Shown here piece by piece: positions 1-38,846 of a stretch of DNA of 64,000 nt (position 1 is the first letter of the stretch; every line of letters begins with the position of its first letter). The DNA lies in NCBI RefSeq assembly GCF_045037415.1, contig NZ_CP173438.1; one strand, written 5' to 3'. Made by a program: the position numbers and the translations under genes. The notes beneath the pieces were generated by a model, which worked only from the letters and a program-made list of their open reading frames with translations, was not told the DNA's origin and did not search any database. The stretch comes from Escherichia coli (GTDB taxonomy: Bacteria; Pseudomonadota; Gammaproteobacteria; Enterobacterales; Enterobacteriaceae).

Positions 1-3920
<3,920 letters not shown>

Positions 3921-4411: not shown

Positions 4412-5926
<1,515 letters not shown>

Positions 5927-6132
5927 CTAACATTTGCTGTTATTTTGCACGGTTTTTGTCGGGTATGGATTTGATGATTGCTGCGCAAATGCACGCTTTC
6001 AGGGCAATAATTGCCTGATTTTTGGGCAAGATAATTAACGTTTTCGTATAGTAACAGAGTGAAAGTATTTTAAATCAAGGAATTAGATTTGTGCTTTAAT
6101 CGCAAATTGCGATCTAAATCAAATTAATTGGT

Positions 6133-6160
6133 TAAAGATAACCGCAGCGGGGCCGACATA
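6133..6160 (+). promoter_or_regulatory. Candidate sigma-28 (FliA) promoter for aer
   Basis: TAAAGATA-N11-GCCGACAT matches the flagellar class 3 consensus TAAAGTTT-N11-GCCGATAA, about 50 nt upstream of the aer ATG. Confidence 0.55.
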
Positions 6161-6208
6161 AACTCTGACAAGAAGTTAACAACCATATAACCTGCACAGG
6201 ACGCGAAC

Positions 6209-7729
6209 ATGTCTTCTCATCCGTATGTCACCCAGCAAAATACCCCGCTGGCGGACGACACCACTCTGATGTCCACTACCGATCTGCAAAGCTATATCAC
6301 TCATGCTAATGACACTTTTGTGCAGGTGAGCGGCTATACCTTGCAGGAGTTACAGGGGCAACCGCACAACATGGTGCGTCACCCGGATATGCCAAAAGCG
6401 GCGTTTGCGGATATGTGGTTCACCCTGAAAAAAGGGGAACCCTGGAGCGGCATCGTGAAAAATCGCCGCAAAAATGGCGACCATTATTGGGTGCGGGCCA
6501 ATGCGGTACCGATGGTGCGCGAGGGAAAAATCAGTGGCTATATGTCGATTCGTACCCGGGCGACGGATGAAGAGATCGCGGCGGTGGAGCCGCTGTACAA
6601 AGCGCTGAATGCCGGACGTACCGGTAAGCGTATTCATAAAGGCCTGGTGGTGCGTAAAGGCTGGCTGGGTAAACTGCCTTCATTACCGCTTCGCTGGCGG
6701 GCGCGTGGAGTGATGACCCTGATGTTTATCGTGCTGGCGGCCATGCTCTGGTTTGTTGCTGCCCCGGTGGTGACGTATATCTTCTGTGCATTAGTGATGT
6801 TGTTGGGAAATGCCTGTTTTGAATGGCAAATTGTACGTCCGATAGAAAATGTCGCCAGCCAGGCACTGAAAGTGGCGACCGGAGAACGTAATAGTGTTGA
6901 GCATCTGAAGCGCAGCGATGAGCTGGGGCTGACATTACGCGCGGTAGGGCAGCTTGGCCTGATGTGCCGTTGGCTAATTAATGATGTCTCAAGCCAGGTG
7001 TCCAGTGTCAGAAACGGCAGTGAGACGCTGGCGAAAGGCACCGATGAACTGAACGAACATACCCAGCAGACAGTTGATAACGTTCAGCAAACGGTGGCGA
7101 CCATGAACCAAATGGCGGCGTCGGTGAAACAGAACTCTGCCACGGCGTCGGCTGCCGATAAACTTTCTATCACCGCCAGTAATGCGGCAGTGCAGGGCGG
7201 GGAGGCGATGACTACGGTGATCAAGACAATGGACGATATTGCCGACAGTACCCAGCGCATTGGCACCATTACTTCGCTGATTAACGATATTGCGTTTCAG
7301 ACCAATATTCTGGCCCTGAATGCGGCGGTGGAAGCGGCGCGTGCCGGCGAACAGGGCAAAGGTTTTGCAGTGGTGGCGGGGGAAGTGCGTCATTTAGCCA
7401 GCCGCAGCGCCAATGCTGCCAACGATATTCGCAAGCTGATTGATGCCAGTGCTGATAAGGTGCAATCTGGTTCGCAGCAGGTACACGCCGCCGGACGGAC
7501 GATGGAAGATATTGTGGCGCAGGTAAAAAACGTCACCCAGTTGATAGCTCAGATTAGCCATTCAACGCTGGAACAGGCCGATGGGCTTTCCAGCCTGACC
7601 CGTGCAGTGGATGAGCTTAACCTGATCACCCAGAAAAACGCCGAGTTAGTGGAAGAGAGTGCGCAGGCGTCGGCGATGGTGAAACACCGCGCCAGCCGAC
7701 TGGAAGACGCGGTGACGGTGCTGCATTAA
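6209..7729 (+). CDS. aer: Aerotaxis receptor (PAS-FAD sensor fused to MCP signalling domain)
   Basis: 506 aa ORF; N-terminal PAS region, central hydrophobic hairpin, C-terminal methyl-accepting domain ([26 protein letters not shown]). Confidence 0.92.
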
Positions 7730-36239: not shown

Positions 36240-38777
36240 TTATTTGACTGTTTTACAAGGTAAAATTATTGCGCTTTCGCTAATGTTACTTTGGTTTGGC
36301 GGCGTGACTTCACAGGTATTATCACCCCAGGTTAAATGCAGAATACTGTTTTCCTGAATACCGCTGAGATAAACGAAGCCGTCTTCCGCGACCAGGCCCA
36401 CATCTTTACCTGTCGCTTTATCCGTGACATTCACACCTAGTGGAGGGAAGCGGCCATTTTCCTGACGAATAACGCCGACGATTTGGTATCCGGTGGTGGC
36501 ATTCAGTTTTGCGTAGCCGATGGCACCCTGGGTGAGCGTAGTACGAATAACCGAGTTTTCGACATCGACACCTTCTGGCAGATCGTTATTGTTCACCCGC
36601 AACATGGAGGTGGTGTAGTTCGATAACGAAGGTACAACGGCAATGCCCAGCCCGTTGGTAACAGTTCGGTTAGAGTTGATTTCAACGCCGGAGATGCCGT
36701 CGGTATCGACCATCATGCGGGCGTTATCAGCATAGCTATAATCGTGAAGGGCGACACCATGACGTGTAGCGGTAAGTGAACCGTACCAGCCTGCGGTAAC
36801 AGAATTGTACTGATTCGGCTGTACACTGCCGTTAATGTTCAGACGTCCCCACGGTGAATAGTGCTGGTAGCTGCCGCGCAGTGTTGGTTCGCCATCACGT
36901 ATATTGTCGTCCGTTGCCGACGCTGAAATATTCCAGATATTGTTGCGATCTGATGAATCGTACCAGGAAATCATCTGCGAAGTATTACTGCTTCCCGTAC
37001 GCTGCATACTGTAGGAGATGTTGCGGTTTTGTTGTAAAGGTAGAGAGAAAGAGAAGTAATATTGATTCTCTTCGTCGTCATCCCAGCGGATTCGACTTAC
37101 TGCCAGCGATGCAGAGATACCTTTGAAATCGCCAATATCAAAGTTTTTGCTTACAGATACGGAGTAGTTGGTATTGCTGGCGCTGTCCCAATAAGTATTG
37201 CGTGTAACGTTGAGATAAGAGTTTAATTCCAGTGTTTCAAAGTACTGGTTCAAGGAAATGACATAACTCTCTTTTTCATTATCAATTGACTCATCGCCAT
37301 TACGCGAGCTTAGGTACTCACTCATCGACACGTAATCTTTATCTGAGAAGCGATAACCCGCGAAGGTAATCTGACTACCTGTCGATTCGAAATGCTTTGC
37401 ATAGTTGAAGCGATAGCTGTAACCACGCAGATTGTCGCTATTTTGTTTCTGCAAAGACGCGTCTGCTCCGGTGACATCAAAAGAAAGCGAACCGAATTGG
37501 TTAAGATTAAAGCCAATACCGGTAGTGATAGCCTGATAATCATCAGCGGTGAACATGCCGCCACCATACAGCGACACATTGTTCAACCAGCCCCAGGAGG
37601 CTTCCGCCGTCCAGAAAAAGGGATTATTGATATCGTTATGCCCGACGGATGTCGGTTTTCCCAGCGACGTTTTATAGCGCACTTGCCCTTTACGGGTTAA
37701 ATAGGGAATGGATGCGGATCCAACCTGGAAGGTGCTGGTGCGGCCATCTTCTTCTTCCACTGTGACATCCAGCTGCCCCTGAAACGATTGCCCCAAATCA
37801 GAAATAGTAAAAGGGCCTGGCGCGACAGTGGTTTGATAAAGTACACGACCATTTTGTGCCACAGTTACTTTCGCGTTGGTCTGCGCGATGCCGGTAATTT
37901 GTGGCGCATAACCCTGTAAATCTGGCGGCAGCATGCTTTCATCACTTTCCAGCGATGCGCCAGTAAAGTGGAAGGTATCGTAAAGATTGGAGCTCAGGTC
38001 GTACTGGCCCATAGTGAATTTTGACGACCAGGAGGGGATAGGGCGAAACAGATAAGTTCGCGCAAATTCGCTGTCGCGGTTTACCGAGCGTCCATCAGCA
38101 AAATTCTGATTATATTGGTAATCGCTACGTAAGCGCCATGCGCCGAGGTTAAAGCCTAACGTACCATAGGAGCTGACGTTTTGGGTGCTGTCTCCATGAT
38201 GTGGGGCATATTGGCTGGCGTACACATTGTAATCAAGGATAAACCCGGCGATACCGGTATCCCAAAACTCTGGTGGCGTCCAGTTTGTTGCCTGGTATTT
38301 TAACCACGCCTGGGGAACACTTAGCGATAATATCATCGTAGCTTTATCAAGCCGTGTCGTTAACTCCTGACGTTGGCTTAAATCGAGACATTCTCTGCCA
38401 GCTATGGTTTGCAATGATTCAATAAATTCCGTATTAAGACCGAAACTAGTCAGATCTTCTTTGGTTAAGCAGAGTAACGAACCACTTTCATTATCGGCTT
38501 TTACCCATTCCAGTATTAACGCTTGTGGCAACATATTTTTATTTATTTGCACACGAGCGAGGTATCTGCCTGGGGGGATATAGCCTTTTTTCTCAAAACG
38601 AGAGATGTCGATATTCTCACGGTCTTCAACATCAATCATATCAACGTTGAATTCCACTGCATGGGCAGGTAAAACGAAGAGTAGCGAACACACTACGCCA
38701 GACAGGGCATTTTTAATTGCGTGGGATAATGTATCCCCGGTAAACGTGTTTTTATTGTTCATAAAAATCCATTTCAA
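36240..38777 (-). CDS. yqiG: Outer membrane fimbrial usher, intact
   Basis: 845 aa uninterrupted ORF with usher plug and beta-barrel character and C-terminal cysteine pair; no IS interruption. Confidence 0.85.
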   Translation of the reverse strand: MKWIFMNNKNTFTGDTLSHAIKNALSGVVCSLLFVLPAHAVEFNVDMIDVEDRENIDISRFEKKGYIPPGRYLARVQINKNMLPQALILEWVKADNESGSLLCLTKEDLTSFGLNTEFIESLQTIAGRECLDLSQRQELTTRLDKATMILSLSVPQAWLKYQATNWTPPEFWDTGIAGFILDYNVYASQYAPHHGDSTQNVSSYGTLGFNLGAWRLRSDYQYNQNFADGRSVNRDSEFARTYLFRPIPSWSSKFTMGQYDLSSNLYDTFHFTGASLESDESMLPPDLQGYAPQITGIAQTNAKVTVAQNGRVLYQTTVAPGPFTISDLGQSFQGQLDVTVEEEDGRTSTFQVGSASIPYLTRKGQVRYKTSLGKPTSVGHNDINNPFFWTAEASWGWLNNVSLYGGGMFTADDYQAITTGIGFNLNQFGSLSFDVTGADASLQKQNSDNLRGYSYRFNYAKHFESTGSQITFAGYRFSDKDYVSMSEYLSSRNGDESIDNEKESYVISLNQYFETLELNSYLNVTRNTYWDSASNTNYSVSVSKNFDIGDFKGISASLAVSRIRWDDDEENQYYFSFSLPLQQNRNISYSMQRTGSSNTSQMISWYDSSDRNNIWNISASATDDNIRDGEPTLRGSYQHYSPWGRLNINGSVQPNQYNSVTAGWYGSLTATRHGVALHDYSYADNARMMVDTDGISGVEINSNRTVTNGLGIAVVPSLSNYTTSMLRVNNNDLPEGVDVENSVIRTTLTQGAIGYAKLNATTGYQIVGVIRQENGRFPPLGVNVTDKATGKDVGLVAEDGFVYLSGIQENSILHLTWGDNTCEVTPPNQSNISESAIILPCKTVK

Positions 38778-38846
38778 AAAAGACCCAAAGTTGCCGATGA
38801 CATATCATCGGCTTTACCGTCTGACGTTGTGCGTATTAATTGCCGC

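Follow-up and report, generated by a model that had tools for sequence, protein, structure and literature searches.

The DNA between patA (ygjG) and aer in Escherichia coli raises the question of which form of RNA polymerase transcribes aer, the gene of the aerotaxis receptor, and from how many promoters. The window, by which we mean the whole stretch of 64,000 nucleotides that was analysed, had been given an initial annotation in which a flagellar sigma-28 (FliA) promoter was placed ahead of aer, assigning the gene to the late flagellar regulon, and in which a second promoter of the sigma-70 type was suggested for a long AT-rich leader. The element in the window is almost certainly a single, experimentally defined, CRP-activated sigma-28 promoter of E. 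coli aer. This promoter is already known, and has been published and mapped experimentally in detail.

The aer locus

The DNA around the promoter is E. coli chromosome, with the gene order ebgA-ebgR-ygjH-ygjG(patA) on one side of the intergenic region and aer-nfeR-nfeF-tRNA-Ile-mug-rpoD on the other (RefSeq annotation). A 411-bp query (5850-6260) found a match in 5421 of 5426 complete E. coli genomes, with 100% identity in strain SK1144 and others, and the aer gene is likewise present in 5421 of the 5426. The product of 6209-7729 contains PAS, HAMP and MCPsignal domains (Pfam).

The DNA between patA and aer, delimited by the RefSeq start of patA (window 5791, minus strand), spans 5792-6208, which is 417 bp with 40% GC, compared with 50% GC for the window. 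The strain is not K-12; 10 of the 417 positions differ from a K-12-size strain, none of them in a promoter element, and over 6100-6170 position 6129 alone differs, and it belongs to the linker that joins the CRP site to the -35 element. The features of the aer promoter and transcript are:

6105..6126, + strand: CRP DNA site, 22-mer AATTGCGATCTAAATCAAATTA, 17 of 22 positions as in the ideal site
6108-6123, + strand: 16-bp core of the CRP site, TGCGATCTAAATCAAA, TGCGA-N6-TCAAA, with its centre at 6115.5, which is -49.5
6133..6140, + strand: -35 octamer TAAAGATA, positions -32 to -25
6141..6151, + strand: spacer ACCGCAGCGGG, 11 nt, conserved in length and not in sequence, 82% GC in E. coli
6152..6159, + strand: -10 octamer GCCGACAT, with CGA at -11 to -9
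6165, + strand: aer transcription start (+1), from the published numbering mapped on the window
6165..6208, + strand: aer 5' untranslated region, 44 nt from start site to ATG, with the Shine-Dalgarno sequence AGGA at 6199-6202
6209..7729, + strand: aer coding sequence, an open reading frame of 506 amino acids named aer in RefSeq

The sigma-28 motif and its statistical weight

The initial annotation had the sequence of the motif and its N11 spacing exactly right, but its description as a close match to the FliA consensus is too strong. Each octamer agrees with the consensus TAAAGTTT-N11-GCCGATAA at six of eight positions (12 of 16 in total, four mismatches), a score that is at chance level in the window. 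The features of sigma-28 promoters that the motif does carry are intact TAAA and CGA cores and a spacer of exactly 11 nt. It lies on the + strand and closely precedes a chemotaxis receptor gene, the end of the -10 octamer being 50 nt from the aer ATG (6209).

A consensus search that allowed at most three mismatches missed the aer site and found one intragenic match instead. With up to four mismatches there were six matches in the window, against 5.7 ± 2.2 expected in first-order Markov sequences. Weight matrices that excluded aer were derived from the FliA ChIP-seq sites in the literature, using either all 51 sites or the 24 strong sites. The aer site ranked seventh in the window with the 51-site matrix and second with the 24-site matrix, and shuffled 64 kb windows held 2.1 and 0.7 equally good matches, respectively. 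By itself, the sigma-28 motif of aer does not exceed chance across the window. Within the 120 nt ahead of one chosen gene, a match of this kind has a probability of ~0.001-0.005, calculated from the window rates. The motif is credible from sequence because of its position and orientation, together with the intact TAAAG and CCGA cores and the conservation in other genera.

Two other matches to the FliA matrix, at 38774-38801 (+ strand) and 46452-46425 (- strand), outscore the aer site. One is located between fimbrial usher and fimbrial-like genes, in antisense orientation, and the other within ygiC, in sense orientation. The FliA ChIP-seq table, with its 52 motifs, was found to contain neither sequence, and motif score alone is therefore no predictor of FliA promoters.

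Conservation of the promoter architecture

When representative genomes were scanned with the Aer protein, 80 loci were retrieved. The pattern TAAAG-N14-GCCGA is found in 17 of 17 Enterobacteriaceae aer orthologues, which include a divergent E. coli strain and members of Citrobacter, Enterobacter, Pseudescherichia, Phytobacter, Pluralibacter, Cedecea and Pseudocitrobacter, and its first T is 69-82 nt ahead of the ATG. When 18 Enterobacteriaceae sequences are aligned, the invariant columns are TG[C/T]GA and ATC in the half-sites for CRP, TAAAG, and CCGA. There are no insertions or deletions from the CRP site through the -10 element, so the spacing of CRP site, -35 and -10 is fixed and the whole architecture is conserved across Enterobacteriaceae. 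The sequence of the spacer diverges, from GC-rich in E. coli to AT-rich in other genera.

Among 61 more distant homologues, five are preceded within 250 nt by a loose sigma-28 pattern (four in Pantoea/Erwinia and one in an unclassified Enterobacteriaceae MAG), against a background of 0.0026 per 270 nt. Such patterns are absent upstream of the aer homologues in Burkholderia, Hydrogenophaga and similar genera. Conservation of the promoter is therefore established for Enterobacteriaceae, with a few further instances in Pantoea and Erwinia.

In 5420 E. coli genomes the 71-bp core occurs at 95% identity or more, and the two variant strains examined depart from it only in the linker that separates the CRP site from -35, at 6129/6130. 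Position 6 of the -10 octamer (window 6157) is A or C in all 17 orthologues (L002-L018; GCCGA[A/C]AT) and never the consensus T. This conserved non-consensus base would fit a deliberately weak promoter that depends on an activator.

A single start site and sigma-28 specificity

Published experiments have shown the elements of the aer promoter, its start site, its sigma specificity, its requirement for CRP and the position dependence of that requirement, and the occupancy of the site by FliA in vivo. Hollands, Lee, Lloyd and Busby (Mol Microbiol 2010) gave the promoter as TAAAGATA-n11-GCCGACAT, the same as in the window (PMC2859248). In the FliA ChIP-seq data of Fitzgerald et al. (PLoS Genet 2014), the motif given for aer is the 28-mer TAAAGATAACCGCAGCGGGGCCGACATA, and its fold-above-threshold (FAT) score is 21 (PMC4183435). 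This 28-mer is unchanged in the window at 6133-6160, and the window sequence is identical to the one studied.

Primer extension gave a single product, with +1 located six bp downstream of the -10 octamer (PMC2859248). In the published numbering, the -35 element begins with T at -32, CGA occupies -11 to -9, and the CRP site is centred at -49.5 (PMC2859248); these three anchors agree in placing the start at 6165. The result of a single promoter was obtained with a fragment from -91 to +65, which corresponds to window 6074-6229 when mapped from the primers, in LB-grown cultures. For genome-wide start sites, no entry for aer was found in the text of Kim et al. (2012). The PdhR paper does not mention aer.

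Changing CGA to GCT lowered expression of aer::lacZ from 223 to 12 Miller units, the level found in a fliA deletion, and the single changes T-32C, A-30T and G-28A lowered it from 223 to 23-50 Miller units (PMC2859248). In fliA and crp deletions, aer::lacZ stayed basal through the whole of growth (PMC2859248). With purified sigma-28 polymerase there was one transcript, and the DNA reacted with KMnO4 from -10 to +4; sigma-70 polymerase produced neither (PMC2859248). RNA-seq gave normalised values for aer of 225 in motile MG1655 and of 12 without fliA, a significant difference (PMC4183435), which amounts to a drop of ~19-fold in chromosomal aer RNA without FliA, with ~5% remaining. A microarray study had also listed aer among the sigma-F-dependent genes (Zhao et al., 2007; PMC1935009).

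The assignment of aer to the late flagellar regulon is thus borne out by Hollands et al. (2010), by Fitzgerald et al. (2014) and by the 17 orthologues. Start-site mapping and expression in a fliA mutant, which the initial annotation had proposed as checks, both exist in the literature for K-12: the one mapped start lies downstream of the motif, and without FliA both the lacZ fusion and the chromosomal RNA fall to the levels given above.

It could be argued that the motif is a chance resemblance and that aer is activated directly by FlhDC or by another factor, since matches of this quality arise by chance ~6 times in the window and aer appears among the FlhDC targets of an older study (cited in PMC4183435). 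This reading is refuted by the published mutational and ChIP data, and we consider its probability negligible. Point mutations in the motif abolish activity, in vitro transcription of aer is specific for sigma-28 (PMC2859248), FliA occupies the site in vivo (PMC4183435), and no orthologue among the 17 has lost the motif. Fitzgerald et al. stated that FliA transcribes aer, and they took the earlier FlhDC assignment as an example of direct and indirect regulation not being told apart (PMC4183435).

Activation by CRP

Co-dependence on CRP is the most distinctive feature of the aer promoter, and it was overlooked in the initial annotation. The CRP site has its centre 17.5 bp ahead of the T that opens the -35 element. 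Its core has two mismatches, and a match of this quality is no better than chance would give across the window. The site at -49.5 is required for activation of aer (PMC2859248), and this centre falls between the positions usual for Class I (-61.5) and Class II (-41.5). The dependence on CRP persists when FliA is supplied from a CRP-independent promoter, and in vitro, at low polymerase concentration, transcription of aer requires CRP (PMC2859248).

The position of the site is critical. Shifting it to -41.5, -44.5 or -54.5 brought activity down to the basal level seen without CRP, and with the site at -61.5 the residual activity was no longer dependent on sigma-28 (PMC2859248). Mapping with FeBABE showed that the alpha subunits' C-terminal domains flank CRP on both sides, and the authors proposed recruitment via activating region 1, with domain 4 of sigma-28 placed unlike domain 4 of sigma-70 (PMC2859248).

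A natural variant of this arrangement was seen in E. coli 20Ec-P-124, a pig isolate from Japan, in which ISApl1 (IS30 family) is inserted directly upstream of the -35 element, at window ~6130 (positions 2440-2510 of locus L084). The insertion splits the CRP site from the promoter, and activation of aer by CRP should therefore be lost in this strain, as judged from the published spacing experiments.

These observations are best explained by the following mechanism. Both octamers are off consensus, and the promoter is therefore weak on its own. When polymerase is limiting, aer needs cAMP-CRP bound at 6108-6123, centred at -49.5, and CRP is proposed to recruit polymerase via activating region 1, with the alpha C-terminal domains on its two sides. 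Expression of aer, as a late (class 3) gene, is therefore on only when two conditions hold together, namely release of FliA by the flagellar cascade and activity of cAMP-CRP. The detailed arrangement of the ternary complex is inferred, as is the physiological purpose of this double control.

The upstream intergenic DNA

The long AT-rich leader of the initial annotation does not exist as such, the 5' untranslated region being only 44 nt. The AT-rich DNA lies upstream of the aer start, at 5792-6164, as untranscribed regulatory DNA common to aer and the divergent patA/ygjG. On the patA side it contains a further element:

5853-5838, - strand: sigma-54-like element TGGCGCAATCCCTGCA, 47-62 nt ahead of the patA ATG (5791)

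This element is kept in nine aligned syntenic sequences with at most one substitution. An NtrC ChIP-seq peak has been assigned to ygjG (PMC4066584), and it is located at ~5808-5888, adjoining TGGCGCAATCCCTGCA, if its coordinates share the genome version used by Fitzgerald et al. Together, the sigma-54-type element and the NtrC peak fit the known nitrogen-regulated promoter of patA. The longest open reading frame for patA (4412-5902, - strand) has its ATG at 5902 and encodes 496 amino acids, and the RefSeq form, which starts at 5791, has 459. The location of the sigma-54-like element inside the 5' extension of the longer form argues for the shorter, annotated one.

A second, FliA-independent promoter of aer (sigma-70 or other), located further upstream in the patA-aer region and active under some condition, would have a candidate in the sigma-70-like sequence TGGGCA-18-TATAGT at 6023-6052 (+ strand). 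It matches at 9 of 12 positions, faces aer and lies outside the tested fragment 6074-6229; its -10-like hexamer is an acceptable -10 in six of nine aligned genera, and the 12 units of aer RNA left in the fliA deletion (PMC4183435) could be ascribed to such a promoter. However, the scan of 5700-6400 for TTGACA-16..18-TATAAT that yielded this match gave one hit against 1.3 in shuffles, and neither sigma-70 promoters nor terminators exceeded chance in that interval. The ~19-fold fall of chromosomal aer RNA without FliA (PMC4183435) means that any FliA-independent promoter accounts for no more than ~5% of expression in those conditions. On the -91 to +65 fragment, polymerase with sigma-70 neither transcribed nor melted the DNA, and primer extension detected one product only (PMC2859248). 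The conservation and AT-richness of the upstream DNA are explained by the conserved regulatory region of patA, with its sigma-54-like site and NtrC peak, and do not call for a second aer promoter. The sigma-70 promoter proposed in the initial annotation is thus unsupported, and we regard an upstream FliA-independent promoter of any kind as quite improbable.

A block at 6060-6087, GAAAGTATTTTAAATCAAGGAATTAGA, which corresponds to -105 to -78 relative to the start of aer, shows conservation in E. coli, Citrobacter, Phytobacter and related genera. It holds a perfect match to the IHF consensus WATCAANNNNTTR (6073-6085), of which the window contains seven against 2.7 expected. Most of the block is outside the published aer200 test fragment (6074-6229), and the literature, searched for IHF in connection with ygjG and aer, yielded nothing. 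We speculate that, beyond its two known promoters, the 417-bp region might contain an architectural site at 6060-6087 that couples or insulates the NtrC/sigma-54 promoter of patA and the CRP/sigma-28 promoter of aer, or else an upstream FliA-independent promoter of aer that works under other conditions; taken together these options have a slim chance of being correct.

The 5' untranslated region

An RNA element in the aer leader was considered and rejected, because a search of 5600-6500 against Rfam gave zero matches and the predicted fold of the 5' untranslated region with the early coding region was no better than that of shuffled sequences (z = 0.55). Two blocks in the untranslated region are kept across genera, TTAACA (6176-6181) and ATAACCTGCACAGGA (6188-6202), and the latter contains ACAGGA at the ribosome-binding site. 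This ACAGGA resembles a GGA motif of the CsrA type.

Comparison with known systems

Historically, the aer promoter provided the first case of a sigma-28 promoter activated directly by CRP, which acts from the unusual position -49.5. This work was published in 2007-2010, and genome-wide confirmation followed in 2014. The present analysis makes small additions, namely that the spacing of CRP site, -35 and -10 and the non-consensus base in the -10 octamer are conserved across genera of Enterobacteriaceae. The sequence match by itself would not convince statistically.

The closest known system is the aer promoter of E. coli K-12, which is the same locus, with an identical 28-mer, CRP site and neighbourhood (patA/ygjG divergent, nfeR downstream) (PMC2859248; PMC4183435). 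The strain background alone differs, with the 10 substitutions in the 417-bp intergenic region. The E. coli trg promoter, which belongs to a different gene outside the window, has a spacing of CRP site, -35 and -10 identical to that of aer, and shows the same co-dependence on FliA and CRP (PMC2859248). The class 3 flagellar promoters (fliC, tar, motA, flgM and tsr) share with aer the sigma factor, the spacing of the elements and the TAAA and CCGA cores. From their consensus aer differs at 4 of 16 positions, including position 6 of the -10 octamer, where aer has C and T is usual. Furthermore, aer needs an activator, whereas CRP did not bind clearly to fragments of fliC/fliD, flgMN, flgKL, motA or tar (PMC2859248).
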